From a virus, in the IMG/VR virus record IMGVR_UViG_3300009610_000003, positions 1 through 64,000 of that record: a stretch of DNA of 64,000 bases. One strand, 5' to 3'. The notes beneath the pieces were generated by a model. That model was not told the origin of the DNA, did not search any database, and saw only the letters and a list, made by a program, of their open reading frames with translations. Shown here piece by piece: positions 11,047 to 17,200 of the stretch (within the stretch, counting starts at the first letter, position 1; each line of letters begins with the position of its first letter). The position numbers were made by a program, and so were the translations under genes.

Positions 11047-11646
11047 TTACTTTTTCGCGTTGCTCGGCGGGGCCGCTGCCGTGGTCTTGGGCACCTTCTT
11101 CTCGGTGCTGGCGCTCTTCGCGTTCCCCCGGACACCGGCCCCGTCGCCCGCTTCCGGGGGATCGTCATCGTCGTCTTCGAAGGCATCCCAAGGAAGCTGC
11201 TCTTCCTCAGCCGCTTCGACTTCGGCCTTGGTCGGGCCTTCGCCTTCCACACTGGTTTTCTTCACCAGCTTTTCGGAAGCCGTGCCCTTGGTCGGGATGC
11301 GGTCGCGCAGGCGCTCAAGTGTCGATTTCGGCTTGCCCTGCGGGTCTTCAACGTGCCTGCGGCCAACGAGGTCGCGCACGTGGTCAAGGCGCAGCGGCAG
11401 GTCTACCGGGTCGCCTTCCTTGGTGTTCTCGGCAAGACCGGCGACGACCTTCTCGCCAATCTTCTTGACGCCTTCGATCATCTGTTCGCGGATGGCGACG
11501 ACATCCTCTTCCGCCTCTTCGCGGAAGTCGTCCACCATGCGGAAAGAGGTCTGGTGCATCTTGTTCCACGCATCGAACCGCTTCGCCTCAAGCTCAAGCT
11601 CGGGAAGCTGCGACACGCGGGCACGGCTAAAAGCTGACAGGCCCAT
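11047..11646 (-). CDS. hypothetical acidic protein downstream of the capsid gene
   Basis: 199-aa ORF in operon orientation; AGGA upstream. Confidence 0.6.
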   Translation of the reverse strand: MGLSAFSRARVSQLPELELEAKRFDAWNKMHQTSFRMVDDFREEAEEDVVAIREQMIEGVKKIGEKVVAGLAENTKEGDPVDLPLRLDHVRDLVGRRHVEDPQGKPKSTLERLRDRIPTKGTASEKLVKKTSVEGEGPTKAEVEAAEEEQLPWDAFEDDDDDPPEAGDGAGVRGNAKSASTEKKVPKTTAAAPPSNAKK

Positions 11647-11676
11647 GGCTGGGTTTCCTTTCCTGTTATTGAGCAG

Positions 11677-11709
11677 GGGGAACCGGTGGGAGTGATCCCG
11701 GTTCCCCCC
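11677..11709 (-). terminator. hairpin downstream of the major capsid gene
   Basis: GGGGAACCGG...CCGGTTCCCC stem; no strong U-tract. Confidence 0.4.
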
Positions 11710-11754
11710 ATCGCTTACGGGTCAACGACGAGGAAGATTGCCGCGAGCGAAACC

Positions 11755-12708
11755 TTACGCCAGCTTGTGCTTGAACTGGACGATACGGATGTTCTTGTTC
11801 TCGTACCGGCGGTTCCAGTTCGTGCCGACCGTTAGCTCAACGTTGGTCGGTGCGACACCCGTCGCCGTGCCGACCCACGCGACGCCGCGCGGGTGCATGA
11901 CGAAGTGCCGACGATTGATCAGGATGTCCTCGCCAGCGAGGCTATCGCGATCAGTCTCGGTCGGGGTCGGTGCGCCGCCGTCCGCGTAGCCGATAGCGCC
12001 AGCGCCGAACAGGTAGCTGGTGTACACGCCGGTCGCAACCGGCATCCCATCGTCCACGATCACCCGCTTGCCCATGTAATAGGGCAGGGTCGGGTTGCCG
12101 TCGCGGTCTTCCTTGAAGTCGATGAGGCCCTGCTTGACCAGCACGGCCACCGTGGCCGAGTGCATGGCGAAAGCGGTCAACTGGGCAGCGGCGTCGCCCA
12201 GCTTGTAGATGGCGTCCACCACGCTGTCGCCACCGATGACGGCGGCTGCGCCCGCGCCTGCGGAGATGTCGTGGATGTTGCCCGACATGCTGGCGGCCTT
12301 GAAGATGCCTTCCAGAATGGACAGCACCATCGCCTGCCAGCGGCGTGACCAGTATGCGCCAACCAGCCCGGCGATTTCCCGCATCGGGTCATCGCCCGAA
12401 AGGGCTTCGGCGAGGTCGTTGACACCCCACGCCTTGCCGCGAGCGTGCAGCACGGCGATGTCCTGCGCCGAGGTGATCTTATCGACGCCCAGCGGCACGA
12501 CATCGGACAAAATCTCTTCGACGCCGGTCAGGTCCTTCCAGAACGGCATGGCGAGCGTGGTGCCGCCTTTCATGCCGAACACGTTCAGTTCGCCGACCGT
12601 CTGGATAATGCCGCTCTCGTAGAAAGCGGACAAGGCGGTCGTGCGTTCAACCACGTAGGGGTTGAAGATTGCGGGGACGATGACATCAGCAATTTTTGTA
12701 GCGGCCAT
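11755..12708 (-). CDS. major capsid protein (SPP1 gp13-like)
   Basis: TKIADVIVP..F, MPFW.DL, LSGDDPM, AMHS, YMGKRVIVDD and MHPRG motifs; GAGGAGG ribosome binding site. Confidence 0.9.
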   Translation of the reverse strand: MAATKIADVIVPAIFNPYVVERTTALSAFYESGIIQTVGELNVFGMKGGTTLAMPFWKDLTGVEEILSDVVPLGVDKITSAQDIAVLHARGKAWGVNDLAEALSGDDPMREIAGLVGAYWSRRWQAMVLSILEGIFKAASMSGNIHDISAGAGAAAVIGGDSVVDAIYKLGDAAAQLTAFAMHSATVAVLVKQGLIDFKEDRDGNPTLPYYMGKRVIVDDGMPVATGVYTSYLFGAGAIGYADGGAPTPTETDRDSLAGEDILINRRHFVMHPRGVAWVGTATGVAPTNVELTVGTNWNRRYENKNIRIVQFKHKLA

Positions 12709-12749
12709 AGGTGCAGTCCTCCTCAGTTGGCCATGGGGTTAAGCATGAA

Positions 12750-12857
12750 CCAACCGAAGTCATTGACCGTCCGGCTGGGGGGGACACTTCGTTCTGCCAT
12801 TAGCCGAGAACGAATGTACCTATGTTTATTGGTCGCCCGCCATTAGCCGAGGCAACC
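12750..12857 (-). promoter_or_regulatory. three tandem bulged RNA hairpins in the scaffold-capsid intergenic region
   Basis: stem-CG bulge-3 bp stem-AAU loop at 12831-12857, 12788-12814 and 12750-12778, each with a different lower stem. Confidence 0.7.
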
Positions 12858-12858
12858 C

Positions 12859-13698
12859 TTACGCAGCAAGAATTCTATCGATTTCCGACTGCGTGCGCCC
12901 CGCTGCTTTCATGAAGCGGCGGGCCTTGTCCTTATCGGATTTGATAATGCGGCCCTGTTCCGTCATGTTGAAGGCTTCCTTCGACCACGGATTTATTTCA
13001 GAACCCCGACCGTTGCCAGACCCATGGCTTCCTGAGCCTTTGGCTGGCATGACGAACGGTTTACCATCGTCCGACTTAGACCAATTTTCCACGAATTTGT
13101 CGATATCTACTTCACCGAGGTCGGTGTCAACGACTGCGTGGCGCTTGCCATCGTCGCCCTTGCGCACCTTCACGGAACTGCGGAGCAGGGCGCGGGTCGC
13201 GCCCATGAATTCCTTGGCGATGCCGCTCTTGACCAAAGCTTCGGTCAGGCCGCCGTCCACAAGCGTCGCGTGGATAAGATCGTCGCGTTCCTTGATTTCC
13301 TCTTCCTTGGCCCGCAGGTCGGCCAGCCGCTTGGCCTCAGCGTCGCGCAGGCGCTGCTCGTAGCGCTCGCGTTCCTTCTGAAGCTTCTGCTCGGTGTCCT
13401 TGTCGCGATTGGGGTCGTTCTTCAGCGTCTCAAGCTCGGCGGTGATGTCCGCATAGCGCGCCGGGTCGAAGTCGTCGGGCAGACCTGCGGTCTTGGCTTC
13501 CAGATTGGTGACCCTGTCCTGAAGGGTCTTCTTTTCCCGCTTGAGCGTAGCCAAAGCCGTGGTCAGTGAATGCAGGGAGGTGTGGGCGGTGAGGGTGTTG
13601 TCCAGATCAAGATAGAACTTGCCGTCCTTCTCGACATACTCACCGGCCAAAGCCGCAGGAATATCTTCGGCTTTCTCAATGACCGCACGCAGTGCCAC
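12859..13698 (-). CDS. capsid scaffolding protein
   Basis: EYVEKDGKFYLD start, coiled coil, GSGS linker and NPWSKEAFNMTEQG end; immediately upstream of the capsid gene. Confidence 0.85.
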   Translation of the reverse strand: MALRAVIEKAEDIPAALAGEYVEKDGKFYLDLDNTLTAHTSLHSLTTALATLKREKKTLQDRVTNLEAKTAGLPDDFDPARYADITAELETLKNDPNRDKDTEQKLQKERERYEQRLRDAEAKRLADLRAKEEEIKERDDLIHATLVDGGLTEALVKSGIAKEFMGATRALLRSSVKVRKGDDGKRHAVVDTDLGEVDIDKFVENWSKSDDGKPFVMPAKGSGSHGSGNGRGSEINPWSKEAFNMTEQGRIIKSDKDKARRFMKAAGRTQSEIDRILAA

Positions 13699-13712
13699 GC
13701 TATCAATTCTCC

Positions 13713-13877
13713 CTAAGTCGTGGGCTCGTCGTCGCCTTCCACAGGCTCGTCGTCACCCTCTACAGGCTCGTCGTCGCCTTCCACCGGCTCGTCGTCGCCC
13801 TCTTCGGGCTCGGGCTCAGGCTTGCGCTTGGGTTCCTTCACCTCATCATCGTCGTCGCGAACACCGGGACGGCCCAT
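13713..13877 (-). CDS. 54-aa acidic peptide with four EGDDEP(V) repeats
   Basis: hand translation MGRPGVRDDDEVKEPKRKPEPEPEEGDDEPVEGDDEPVEGDDEPVEGDDEPTT; 21-bp tandem repeat; AAGGGG upstream. Confidence 0.55.
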   Translation of the reverse strand: MGRPGVRDDDDEVKEPKRKPEPEPEEGDDEPVEGDDEPVEGDDEPVEGDDEPTT

Positions 13878-13945
13878 GAGAAATTCCCCTTCAAATGCAC
13901 CTGATTGGAAGCGTGCGAAACATACGCTTCAAGCCCTTGCTTTGG

Positions 13946-14170
13946 CTAGGGCTTTTTTTGCTTCTTCAAGTGGGGGTTCTCTTCGCCCTGATAGGCCAGC
14001 TTGTTGGGGTCGCCTTCGGGGTCGTCATTGACCAGTTGCTCGCCCGGATTGAGCGGCACAATGCCGTCAAGTGTCCAGTCGCCGAACCGCTCGGAACCGG
14101 GGTAAGGCTCAGGTGCGGGCGGCAGGTCGGTGAAGAACTGTCTTTGGGTCGATACGGGTTTCTTGGCCAT
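13946..14170 (-). CDS. hypothetical protein
   Basis: 74 aa with AAGGA ribosome binding site and a candidate promoter at 14206-14234. Confidence 0.6.
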   Translation of the reverse strand: MAKKPVSTQRQFFTDLPPAPEPYPGSERFGDWTLDGIVPLNPGEQLVNDDPEGDPNKLAYQGEENPHLKKQKKP

Positions 14171-14205
14171 GCTGTTCCTTTCATTCGGGGTTGGGTTGAC
14201 CCCTA

Positions 14206-14234
14206 GATATACGATCCTTTATGCATTTCCGCCA
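14206..14234 (-). promoter_or_regulatory. AAGGATCGTA-class promoter
   Basis: TGGCGG-aaatgcataAAGGATCG-TATATC, 17-nt spacer. Confidence 0.55.
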
Positions 14235-17200
14235 GCATTGCTCACGATTTCCACGTCGATGACATCGATCTTGCTGTACCCGCCGACCTCCATGTTCTCG
14301 GTGGTGCTGATGTATTTGAAGCGCGTGCCGCGCGCGGCAATCACCTCCGCTTCATCGGCCATCGCCGACGAGACGGTGCTGCGTCGGCTGATGAACGCCG
14401 CCTTGGTGCCCGCAGGCACGCGCACGCGGAACAGCACCTTGTTGCCGGTGATCGTTGACCGACCGGCAAAGGTATTCAGCGAGACGTTGGGGTTGTGTGA
14501 CATGCTGGCATAGCCCATGTCGGGGAATTCCAGCGGGGGCGGGATGTTGTTCAGGTCACCGGTCGAACTGATGCCACGCCACATGATGGCGTCTTCCTTG
14601 GTCTTGTTCATGATGCTGTCCAGCGTCATGACGTGCTTCTTGCTGATCGGCCCCAAGGCATCGAAACCCTGCTTGCGCAGCGTCCTGTTCATCTCCCCGT
14701 AGCCGCTGGCCGTGTAATACTGCACCGCCTGCGTGCTGACGCCATTGAACGGGAGGTTCACGGCCTTCCGGGTTTCTTCCATGATGATCGATTTGTTCGA
14801 CGCCTTCAGGTCGGTTATGCCTGCCGCCTTGCCCCAGCGGGTCGTGTTGTCCTTCCATGGCGCAGGCTTCACTAGCTGCTCGTAATGCACCTTGTACTTG
14901 CTGGCCTTGGCCGCCTGTTCCGCCGCTGCCTTCGTCTGCGCTTCCGCCGCCTGCGTCTGAGCGAACTTGGCCTTTTGGGCCTCAACCGCCGCCTTTTGCT
15001 CGGGCGAAACGAACTTGACGTGCCCGTCATCGACCATCTGCTGAAGAGCAGCTTTCTGCTGGTCTTTGGTCAGCGTGGTCGATTGGAAATATTTCTCGAT
15101 GGTCTTGGTCTTGCTGCCCCCGGTCGTCTTTTCGATATTGTAGAATTTCTTGTATTCGTTCGTGCCGTCCTTGTAGGGGTTGCTCGGCTTGGTGACCGTC
15201 ACGTCCCACTTGGCATAGTCCGCTTCCGGGATGTCCGCGAGCTTGGTGATGACCTTGGGCACGTTGGTCACCATCTGCGGGGCGGTGGAAGAGCCCATCT
15301 TGACGATGTGCAGGGCACCCCCGGCAACGGCTGTGTCTATAAAATCGTCTATGTCCTTGTCGGTCGGATTGTGAAGCTGCTTCTTCAACATCGCCTTGTA
15401 CTCAGCGACGTTGTACTGATCCGCATATGTCCCCGGCCCGGTCTTGATGACGGCATCGTCGGCCAGACCGCCGGGGGTCTTCTTCATGGCAACCGCAGAA
15501 GGTCCGGGCGGCACCTTGCCGGGTTTGCTGGTGATCGCGCCTGACGAAAGGAAACCTTCCAAAGCGGTATCGGGGTCACCGTGCCCGGCACCCGACCACA
15601 TCTTTTTCCACTCGGTCACCGTGTATTTGTTGCCGAGGCTGGTCGTCAGGATGTCGTCATCGGCGAGCTTCGCCACGGTGGGGTTCTGCGGGGCGGCAGG
15701 CGCAGGTGCTGGCTCTGGGGGCTTGGGTGCAGGGGCCGGTGCTGGCGCGGGCTCTGCGGGCTTCGGGGCAGGCGCTGGCGCAGGCTCTGCGGGCTTCGGT
15801 GCGGGGGCCGGTGCTGGCTTGGGCGCAGGGGCCGGTGTGGCGGGCGCGATCTTGATCGCGCCACTCGTCACATACTTGTCCAAGGCGGCGTCAGCGTTAT
15901 CCGACCCGCCCCAGTAATTCTTCTTCCATTCGGCCACCGTGGATTTTTCACCCGTGCTGTCGATTGTCACGATGTCGTCGTTCTTGAATTTCGACACCGG
16001 CTTCTGGCCTGCGATTGGCGCAGGCTCGGGGGCAGGTTTCGGGGCTGGCTGTGCAACCTTCGCGGGCGGTGCCGCCTTCGGCACGAACTGCAACAGATCG
16101 TCGTCTATCTGCTCATTCAAAATCTGGTCGGCGTCGGCGTCGTCTATGCCCTCTTTGATCTTGTAGTCGGCGACCGTGTACTTGTTGCCAAGCCACGTCT
16201 CCACCACGTCATCGTCCTTGAATTTGATCGCGGATTTCGCGGGCGTATCGGGGGCTGGCCCGGTGGGCTTCGCCTTCACCGTCCATGCGCCCGTGGCGAT
16301 CTTCTCATCGAAGGCATTCACCGAGGCCATATCGCCTTTCTTGAGGTCACCGGCCTTGTACTCGGTGCCGAACGGCGAAACGACGATGTCGTTATCGTCC
16401 AGATCGGCGAGGCCCTTCTTCGTCGTCGCCGAGGCCGCCGCAGGCTCGCCCAGCCCCGTCTGCATCTTCGCGGTCGTCAGGCCCATCTGCTTGGCCGTCG
16501 CTTCGAAGTCGTCGTGGTTCTGCCCCGGCTGGAACGGGTTCTTGGTGATGACCCCCAGCTTCTGGTCGTTCGACTGCATGTGCGCGGCGAGCGTGCCGGG
16601 GGTCAGCGTGCCTGCCTTCATGGCGGCCAGATCGGCGGGGTGGTGGACGGTGATGAACCCCTTCTTGATGTCGTACATGATATGCTCTTGGCCCTTGGCC
16701 TTGCCGCCCACGGCGGCATGGAACTGGCCAACGGTCATGCCGTCCTTGTACTGCGCGAAATCGGCGTTCGCCTTGGTGCCCGGCTTCTTCGGGTTGTGCG
16801 GCACCTGCATCGTGATGATGTCGTTCTCTTTGATGCCCTTGATCTTGCTGGTGATCAGATAATCCGACTTCTTCAGCAGGCTCGGCTCAGCCGACGAGCC
16901 GAACTGCTGGCCCGTGGGTGATGTCAGGAAGTTCTTCGGCGCTGGCGCTGCGGGGGCAGGCGCGGGCGCTGGCGCGGGTTGACCCGGAACCTGCGGTTTG
17001 GGTGCTTCCGCCCCCGGAAGCGCGTCAGCGGGCTTGGCAAGCTGTGTGACGGCAGGCATCGGCGGCTTGCCGAGGCCCGCGCCGGGTCGTTGCGCAAGCT
17101 GCACCGGGTCATGGACGGTGATGAAACCCTTCTTGAGGTCGTAGGCCAGATGCTCGGGGGCTTTCGCCTTGCCCGCGCCACCCGTGGCGATGGCGGTCTT

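Follow-up and report, generated by a model that had tools for sequence, protein, structure and literature searches.

A conserved set of hairpins with matching loops in the leader of a phage major capsid gene: a candidate multi-site RNA operator

We analyzed the spacer between the head scaffolding protein gene and the major capsid protein gene of an uncultured phage, using the first 64 kb of the 82,172-bp virus record IMGVR_UViG_3300009610_000003; this whole 64,000-nt stretch is called the window, and positions are counted from its first base. The late genes around the spacer are on the minus strand, and the spacer is 150 nt long. It contains three hairpins (H1, H2, and H3) with the same apical loop and a fourth (H4) beside the capsid ribosome-binding site. 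Comparison with related phages indicated that the hairpins are very probably a real, conserved, sense-strand RNA structure, and the way in which their loops change suggests that one factor reads the hairpin tips to control capsid production. The reading that we favor is a multi-site RNA operator through which one trans-acting factor controls translation or stability of the capsid message; we give it a probability of roughly 0.45, somewhat short of an even chance.

An earlier note on this DNA had placed three bulged hairpins on the mRNA strand at 12750–12857, and our reading of the minus strand matched it exactly. The hairpins are as follows.

12857–12831, minus strand: hairpin H1, GGUUGCCU-CG-GCU-AAU-GGC-GGGCGACC
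12814–12788, minus strand: core of hairpin H2, UUCGUUCU-CG-GCU-AAU-GGC-AGAACGAA
12782–12820, minus strand: H2 with its outer helix, from predicted folds; 8-bp core stem, CG bulge, GCU/GGC upper stem, AAU loop
12778–12750, minus strand: hairpin H3, CCAGCCGGA-CG-GUC-AAU-GAC-UUCGGUUGG

H1 begins 1 nt past the scaffold stop codon and has an 8-bp lower stem, a CG bulge, a GCU/GGC upper stem, and an AAU loop. H2 is longer than had been described, with an outer helix in which GG at 12820–12819 pairs with CC at 12783–12782 (the extension being GGUACA.../...GUGUCC); relatives retain this helix as GGAC/GUCC, GGG/CCC, GAGC/GCUC, or GGA/UCC. H3, the best-conserved hairpin of the family, has a 9-bp lower stem, a CG bulge, a GUC/GAC upper stem, and an AAU loop. 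In the predicted folds H2 with its outer helix spans approximately 15–17 bp with interruptions, and H1 and H3 span 11–12 bp. For the apices of H1 and H2, RNAfold preferred another register, with a UAAU tetraloop and a G·G mismatch, and the triloop register would be favored for these two hairpins by homology with relatives alone. For H3, a drawing with an AC bulge and an upper stem of 4 bp fits equally well. The upper stem had been said to covary, and it does so between hairpins and between genomes (GCU/GGC, GUC/GAC, CGU/ACG, GCC/GGC, and GUU/AAC), which supports the triloop register.

The apex pattern CGGYYAATGRC occurred four times in the 64-kb window, compared with 0.41 ± 0.67 expected; none of 100 shuffles reached four, and three of the four matches fell within 91 nt. 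The whole 82,172-bp genome gave five matches, all on the same strand, and the two outside the spacer had no flanking stems. The 112 nt that begin at the stop codon and close with H3 folded to −45.6 kcal/mol on the sense strand (z = −3.08, matched by 1 of 200 shuffles) and to −32.9 kcal/mol on the antisense strand (z = −0.61, matched by 47 of 200). Five sequences (the window genome, two related 79-kb phage genomes, and two prophage regions) were scanned for hairpins of the same build bearing that genome's own loop, and none of the five had one outside the capsid leader; the hairpins found elsewhere in them were at chance level and shared no apex. Because the hairpins are restricted to the capsid leader, any factor that recognizes them would be dedicated to the capsid mRNA. 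A separate observation concerns G003:C1, where an 11-bp perfect hairpin with a UUGUG loop lies within the portal gene at ~43599 on the plus strand, opposite the late genes; in its arms it is similar to H1 and H2 in the leader of that phage (L009).

Relatives were gathered by capsid- and scaffold-based scans of IMG/VR, a metagenome scan, a scan of one genome per prokaryote species, and two DNA-pattern scans. The DNA upstream of each capsid gene yielded 25 distinct leaders of the same plan, each with two or three hairpins and designated here by L numbers. The leader was kept in relatives, with covarying stems, contrary to the lack of conservation that the earlier note would have counted as refutation; its triple array holds for the window, but some relatives have only two hairpins. 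The leader was present in every relative with capsid identity of ~69% or more and upstream DNA to read. Those read at 63% identity or less, many of them from low-G+C hosts, had no hairpins, and in them the scaffold stop codon adjoins the capsid ribosome-binding site. The first DNA-pattern scan returned eight loci, all known already; the second returned 22, three of which were known family members, and 19 of the 20 read were chance matches within coding sequence. Among 50,697 cultured-phage records the best capsid match was 60.8% identical, and no isolate had the leader. Two leader loci are prophages of cultured Alphaproteobacteria, Pseudaminobacter soli JCM 19897 (L172) and Pelagibacterium sediminicola IMCC34151 (L127).

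The window capsid protein is 72% and 69% identical to those of the two prophages (G001 and G002), compared with 33% and 30% for the scaffolding protein, and the scaffold, portal, and connector genes as a group are just 26–44% identical. These values indicate that the leader travels with the capsid gene, and from sequence comparison the two together look like an exchanged cassette.

The lower stems of H1 to H3 had been described as differing from one another while all pairing, and the comparison bore this out: the lower stems covary and the apices are kept. When six close leaders were folded to a consensus, 10 of the 36 pairs in H1–H3 kept pairing through changes on both sides, with frequent G·U pairs and not one A·C at a predicted pair. 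Each of the 20 leaders that were folded over the stretch from stop codon through H3 formed the same two or three hairpins. A covariance model (R1) built from five leaders detected 19 leaders at E of 0.03 or less and nothing in six control loci without the leader. With the cut-off at E of 1, five of 24 sources that bear the leader, all divergent (L090, L092, L127, L128, and L209), still escaped it, and eight weak extra matches (E 0.031–0.96) appeared, mostly to the antisense strand of leaders; the missed leaders and the weak matches were excluded from the covariation alignment, which comprised H3 and the loop-proximal 4 bp of H4 in 19 leaders (16 distinct rows). In this alignment 93.7% of cells were paired, compared with 86.8 ± 0.8 in shuffles (0 of 500 as high), and five pairs had double changes, compared with 1.6 ± 0.9 (1 of 500). 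Slid controls, in which the partners were moved by 1–3 columns, had 16–43% of cells paired. The H3 helix was 96% paired in the 19 leaders, with 4 of its 11 pairs changed on both sides.

G+C-rich sequence folds readily, and the family is small and seen only in metagenomes and prophages, as might be the case for a chance structure or a neutral repeat without function. That explanation is scarcely credible given that 25 distinct leaders, reaching down to 69% capsid identity, keep the structure through compensatory changes, that the leader is retained beside scaffold genes just 30–33% identical, and that the structure is not repeated elsewhere in the genomes. Three closely spaced inverted repeats before a very highly expressed late gene might also be a DNA-level element, either hairpin-type promoters or duplex-DNA sites for a late transcription factor; the virion RNA polymerase of phage N4 uses hairpin promoters with 3-nt loops. 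The stems contain many G·U pairs, however, which would become A·C mismatches on the other strand, and only the sense strand folds well. Moreover, the arms vary and the centers are kept, the opposite of a duplex-DNA protein site, and there are no promoter-like hexamers. We consider a DNA-level element highly improbable, and even taken together with chance it is very unlikely.

The CG bulge and the AAU loop, which the earlier note called invariant, are so within the window genome; across the family both vary. The bulge may be CG, G, U, A, GGG, or absent. The loop is AGU (the commonest, and that of the deepest branches), AAU, GAU, UGU, AAC, or, in one clade, a form of 4–5 nt. In 16 of the 25 leaders all the hairpins of a genome have one loop, though their stems differ. 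The leaders are grouped by loop as follows.

AAU in three hairpins: the window, L006, L008, L081
GAU in three hairpins: L082
UGU in three hairpins, each closed by U·G: L009
AGU in two hairpins: L014, L102, L025, L090, L091, L128, L089, L098, L088 (first hairpin of L088 cut by the contig end)
GAU in two hairpins: L127
Nearly uniform loops: L079 (UAGU/AGU/AGU), L209 (GAC/GAU)
Mixed loops: L010, L012, L013, L015, L017, L018, L092

The capsid tree places L082 (GAU) as the sister of L102 (AGU) and puts L081 (AAU) together with L014 (AGU). A second appearance of GAU is in the Pelagibacterium prophage, among AGU relatives, so that the two prophages differ in their loops (AGU in P. soli JCM 19897, GAU in P. 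sediminicola IMCC34151). Because the stems differ between hairpins of one genome, gene conversion would require tracts of 3–5 nt; parallel change of the loops under a common constraint is the simpler account. Two other roles for the loops were considered and rejected. The loops AAUG, GAUG, AGUG, and UGUG contain AUG or GUG and could mimic start codons, but this fails for H1 and H2 of the L010–L018 clade. Pairing of the loop with the spacer between the ribosome-binding site and AUG reached 7–9 bp in L010, L013, and L015 but only 4–6 bp, without the loop, in the window clade, and is not general.

The fourth hairpin lies between H3 and the capsid start codon.

12725–12755, minus strand: hairpin H4, from minimum-energy folds; 5′ arm GGUUGG(U)UCAUG, 3′ arm CAUGGCCAACU
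12718–12722, minus strand: Shine-Dalgarno sequence GGAGG of the capsid gene, from the sequence
12708–12706, minus strand: capsid start codon ATG, from the sequence

The 5′ arm of H4 overlaps the 3′ arm of H3 by 6 nt in the window and by 5–6 nt across leaders, and full H4 and full H3 are mutually exclusive. Its 3′ end is 2 nt before the ribosome-binding site in the window and 0–8 nt before it across leaders; an AGGAG/GGAGG Shine-Dalgarno sequence was kept in all aligned leaders. H4 was found in 18 of 18 leaders analyzed, at −8.8 to −14.3 kcal/mol, and in every one of them its segment was more stable than shuffles (mean z = −2.8). The loop-proximal helix of H4 has been swapped wholesale between clades (UCAUG/CAUGG, UUUC/GAAA, AUUUCA/UGAAA, CUUCAC/GUGAA, and GUC/GAC). 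The energy gap between H3 alone and H4 was within 3.1 kcal/mol in all 18 leaders. On these predicted energies, a bistable H3/H4 reading is plausible. The proposal that H4 hides the ribosome-binding site was dropped, since the predicted Shine-Dalgarno accessibility had no consistent direction in the 18 leaders, and the overlap is kept as an observation. A leader peptide, from the AUG at the H2 loop to a UGA overlapping the ribosome-binding site in the window, was rejected because it is not conserved; the same frame in L082 ends after three codons. As a side observation, the stretch just before the capsid ribosome-binding site (12725–12735 in the window, and its counterparts in relatives' leaders) is C/A-rich, with GCCAACU, CCAACC, and CCAUCACAA; it may be a translation-enhancing tract.

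An RNA device that needs no factor would account for part of this arrangement. The stacked hairpins might compact the spacer, with ribosomes handed from the scaffold stop codon to the capsid start codon, or H3 and H4 might form a kinetic or temperature-dependent switch, the similar loops being tertiary contacts within the RNA. In the leader-less relatives the scaffold stop codon lies directly beside the capsid ribosome-binding site, from which it follows that coupling of the two genes is the ancestral arrangement; in addition, the single-stranded linkers are short, and H3 and H4 have nearly equal energies in all 18 leaders analyzed. Loops of three bases, however, are not large enough for loop–loop pairing. 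A complementary partner for the apex had no match on the other strand of the genome, the leaders as read contain no consistent complementary tetramer, and the bulges, which are the only obvious receptors, are missing from several hairpins. A factor-free device therefore appears quite unlikely.

Transcription of the spacer was examined in several ways. A scan of 11600–14300 for sigma-70-type promoters (two hexamers with 16–18-nt spacing), a type that does not include phage-specific promoters, found no promoter-like site. There was no intrinsic terminator- or attenuator-like site on the minus strand of the spacer and no U tract in its sequence. In the absence of a sigma-70-like promoter and a terminator, the scaffold and capsid genes are probably co-transcribed. 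In three of four metatranscriptome runs there are contigs that bridge the spacer completely, reaching from the scaffold gene end to the capsid start; common contig ends near 12918–12925 coincide with a strain difference and were taken as assembly breaks, not RNA ends.

Co-transcription is also what a processing or stability module would call for. A host endoribonuclease would cut the late mRNA within the spacer, and no dedicated binding protein would be required; the enzyme could be of the RNase E type, acting at the linker listed below, or RNase III, acting on the long H2 rod.

12821–12830, minus strand: A/U-rich linker between H1 and H2, AAUAAACAUA, read from the sequence and single-stranded in the predicted fold

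The scaffold message would be protected at its 3′ end by H1 and the capsid message at its 5′ end by H2 and H3, and unequal decay would set the scaffold:capsid ratio. Parallels are the RNase III sites of T7 and the hairpins between cistrons of the Rhodobacter puf operon. In a genome of 62% G+C, the hairpins border a short A/U-rich single-stranded linker that could be a candidate RNase E-type site, and an AUA-containing linker before H2 recurs in relatives. H1 starts right behind the stop codon, the H2 rod is ~15–17 bp with interruptions, and the two genes lack an intervening sigma-70-like promoter and terminator. A stability hairpin needs no set loop, however, and the genomes with one loop throughout and the joint change of loops are left unexplained by processing, as is the conserved overlap of H3 and H4 beside the ribosome-binding site. 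A T7-type RNase III site has roughly two helical turns of duplex and an internal loop; the 11–12-bp stems of H1 and H3 are short for this enzyme. The RNA-library contigs also bridge the linker uncut in three of four runs, although contigs cannot reveal ends. On balance we regard processing, an alternative already offered in the earlier note, as the main rival, unlikely but worth keeping in view.

The multi-site operator that we favor over these alternatives can be put as a sequence of steps. The scaffold-to-capsid spacer would be transcribed within the late mRNA and fold into a cis-regulatory leader, in which H1–H3 (two or three hairpins) present the same apical triloop and H4, beside the ribosome-binding site, competes with H3 for one strand. 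The apices would most likely be repeated recognition sites of a single trans-acting factor, probably a protein. Bound at H3, such a factor would fix the choice between H3 and H4 and so set the level or duration of translation of the capsid cistron; H1 and H2 would supply cooperative or avidity sites. What the sequences show is the RNA structure with its strand, its conservation and covariation, the joint change of the loops, and the overlap of H3 with H4; binding of the factor, its action on translation, and the direction of the effect are what we infer.

A protein-binding operator had been proposed in the earlier note. Its RNA side stands, in that the leader is a sense-strand RNA whose loops change together as a common partner predicts. 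A search for RNA-binding proteins among 20 proteins, consisting of 19 early-region open reading frames (ORFs) and the 199-residue protein described below, gave no Pfam match above the cut-off. Several further points weigh against the operator. The RNA-library contigs have a depth of 2–3 and could derive from carried-over DNA. The number of H3-arm bases paired in H4 was 5.56 nt, compared with 5.05 nt in shuffles, which is not above the shuffle level, and the competition between H3 and H4 could therefore be an effect of composition. In full context H3 was predicted to be the less stable state by 2–6.8 kcal/mol in 14 of 18 leaders, and when H3 was forced or penalized the predicted accessibility of the ribosome-binding site rose by 0.1 or more in 3 of 18 and fell by 0.1 or more in 6 of 18. 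Loops were non-uniform in 9 of 25 leaders (seven mixed, two nearly uniform), and uniformity among many of the AGU leaders may be plain inheritance; informative lineage changes number only about five. The covariation alignment was fitted to the model structure and hence leans toward structure. Finally, the L082 and L102 capsids are identical over the 113 residues at hand and yet their loops differ, so that the capsid N-terminus is not favored as the loop reader.

Which factor might read the tips was approached through shared genes. The window proteins with homologs in both prophages were head and tail structural proteins only, and among the proteins common to leader-bearing phages only the capsid protein is highly conserved. 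Because the shared proteins are structural only, economy points to the capsid or scaffolding protein itself, acting in autogenous control, or else to a host protein. A comparison of the scaffold C-terminus with loop type gave nothing assignable, L082 and L102 differing at several residues. The more specific proposal, that the tips are an address read by the capsid or scaffolding protein and the leader an autogenous translational operator of the major capsid gene in a tailed double-stranded DNA phage, we consider unlikely. If it were true, operator and protein would co-evolve through a few loop alleles (AGU, AAU, GAU, and UGU) and would move as one cassette between 80-kb virulent-type phages and temperate alphaproteobacterial prophages.

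Neighboring small genes were also considered as partners of the leader. A 199-residue protein encoded directly 3′ of the capsid gene (11047–11646, minus strand) has no Pfam or PHROG match; it is 40–73% conserved in most leader-bearing relatives, reaching L088 and L089, and was undetected in L025, L090, and L091. Between the gene for a 1105-residue ADP-ribosyltransferase-domain protein and the scaffold gene are two small ORFs on the minus strand (13713–13877 and 13946–14170); one encodes a very acidic protein of 54 residues with repeated EGDDEPV units, and the other a protein of 74 residues detected only in closer relatives. As leader partners, the 199- and 74-residue proteins were rejected, since the occurrence of neither follows the leader.

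The leader was compared with described RNA elements. The Rfam search suggested beforehand gave no existing match, with none in the 64-kb window at Rfam 15 gathering thresholds; in E-value mode, 12600–12960 gave four matches, all with E of 5 or more and none on the hairpins. No description of such a leader was found in a search of full-text literature or in passages of PMC6316719. The motif itself is probably new, but of a known general kind, the cis-regulatory mRNA hairpin motif, and is probably an operator.

By analogy, the leader appears closest in logic to the coat-protein operators of single-stranded RNA phages and to the T4 translational operators, and closest in position to intercistronic processing hairpins. 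The operators of MS2, Qbeta, and PP7 are small hairpins with a 5′-side bulge and a loop of 3–6 nt that the capsid protein reads to control translation; loop and bulge determine their specificity, which varies from one related phage to another, as might be the case here. They differ in being single hairpins that hold the replicase start, in RNA genomes, with a single-A bulge at a fixed distance from the loop, whereas the present leader has two or three hairpins 40–150 nt upstream of the start in a tailed double-stranded DNA phage, with a bulge that is variable or absent; a single A bulge was found only in H2 of L015, and at least 42 nt separate H3 from the start codon downstream. The T7 R sites and puf hairpins lie between cistrons of an operon and set unequal product levels, as the present hairpins may, but they need no shared loop sequence, and for the present leader cleavage is a hypothesis. 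Lambdoid boxB has a five-base GNRA-like loop on a 5-bp stem with boxA in an early operon; the present hairpins have triloops on bulged stems of 11–12 bp in a late operon.

The scaffolding protein of phage P22 is said, in work attributed to Casjens and Adams in 1985 and to Wyckoff and Casjens in 1985, to be autoregulated post-transcriptionally by unassembled protein. This precedent, cited in the earlier note, resembles the proposed operator in that a tailed phage adjusts the amount of a head-assembly protein at a step later than transcription, but the regulated gene is scaffold, not capsid, and P22 is without such a spacer; we know of no RNA element defined for this autoregulation. More broadly, to our knowledge the setting of scaffold and capsid amounts at the RNA level in tailed phages is largely unexplored. 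The iron-responsive element bound by IRP/aconitase resembles the C-AGU-G apex of the family, a triloop closed by C-G, with an unpaired base below on the 5′ side. Its loop, however, is of six bases (CAGUGN), compared with 3 nt here (4–5 nt in one clade), and AAU, GAU, and UGU do not fit it; it has five pairs between the loop and the unpaired C, compared with a 3-bp upper helix here (4 in L009). The C-AGU-G of the family lacks the sixth base, and its bulges vary (CG, U, G, A, GGG, or none). In phage Mu, the Com protein on an upstream hairpin of mom mRNA chooses between two folds beside the ribosome-binding site, but at a single site, as a zinc-finger activator, and on a DNA-modification gene; the 20 proteins scanned here, which are part of the genome, included no Com-like protein. 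T4 RegA, gp32, and gp43 each bind a structured or specific site in an mRNA leader and repress initiation, with operators that diverge between relatives; T4 translational operators are the subject of PMC3014915 and PMC535899. The T4 targets are early or replication genes, however, and the sites overlap the start region and are not repeats of one hairpin.

The leader is a small and conserved RNA motif, as yet undescribed, at the scaffold/capsid point of a late operon. With its loop variants, nature has already set up an experiment on specificity, and the two cultured prophage hosts, with different loops, make the question testable without isolation of an 82-kb phage. If a protein partner exists, the pair would provide a new orthogonal RNA-hairpin/protein tool of the MS2 type.

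The 82,172-bp record has direct terminal repeats. The genes that flank the leader are as follows.

12859–13698, minus strand: head scaffolding protein gene, 279 residues, from the ORF list; phrog_206, E 7.7e-27
12861–12859, minus strand: scaffold stop codon TAA, from the ORF list
11755–12708, minus strand: major capsid protein gene, 317 residues, SPP1 gp13-like; phrog_247, E 1.7e-110, and Pfam PF20036 Gp13-like, E 1.3e-10

The capsid protein is 52% identical to that of SPP1 gene 13. Within the 3′ coding end of the scaffold gene (12897–12926, minus strand; ARRFMKAAGR codons) is a hairpin of 10 bp with one mismatch, which gave weak sub-threshold Rfam matches to the terminal hairpin of a Caulobacter small RNA model; it is probably incidental, since the pairing is lost in the L010 clade.

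A different structured leader occupies the same scaffold-to-capsid spacer in L057 (3311–3437) and, in similar form, in L059, L062, L067, L068, and L071, whose scaffold is 23–28% identical. It has a TTGAC-containing stretch right behind the stop codon, followed by a long rod hairpin with an AUG triloop; the apex of the rod is GGCA-AUG-UGCC, or GGCC-AUG-GGCC in L062. A second helix joins UCCAUGGGAC to CCCAUGG, the region of the capsid start, and holds the ribosome-binding site within it.

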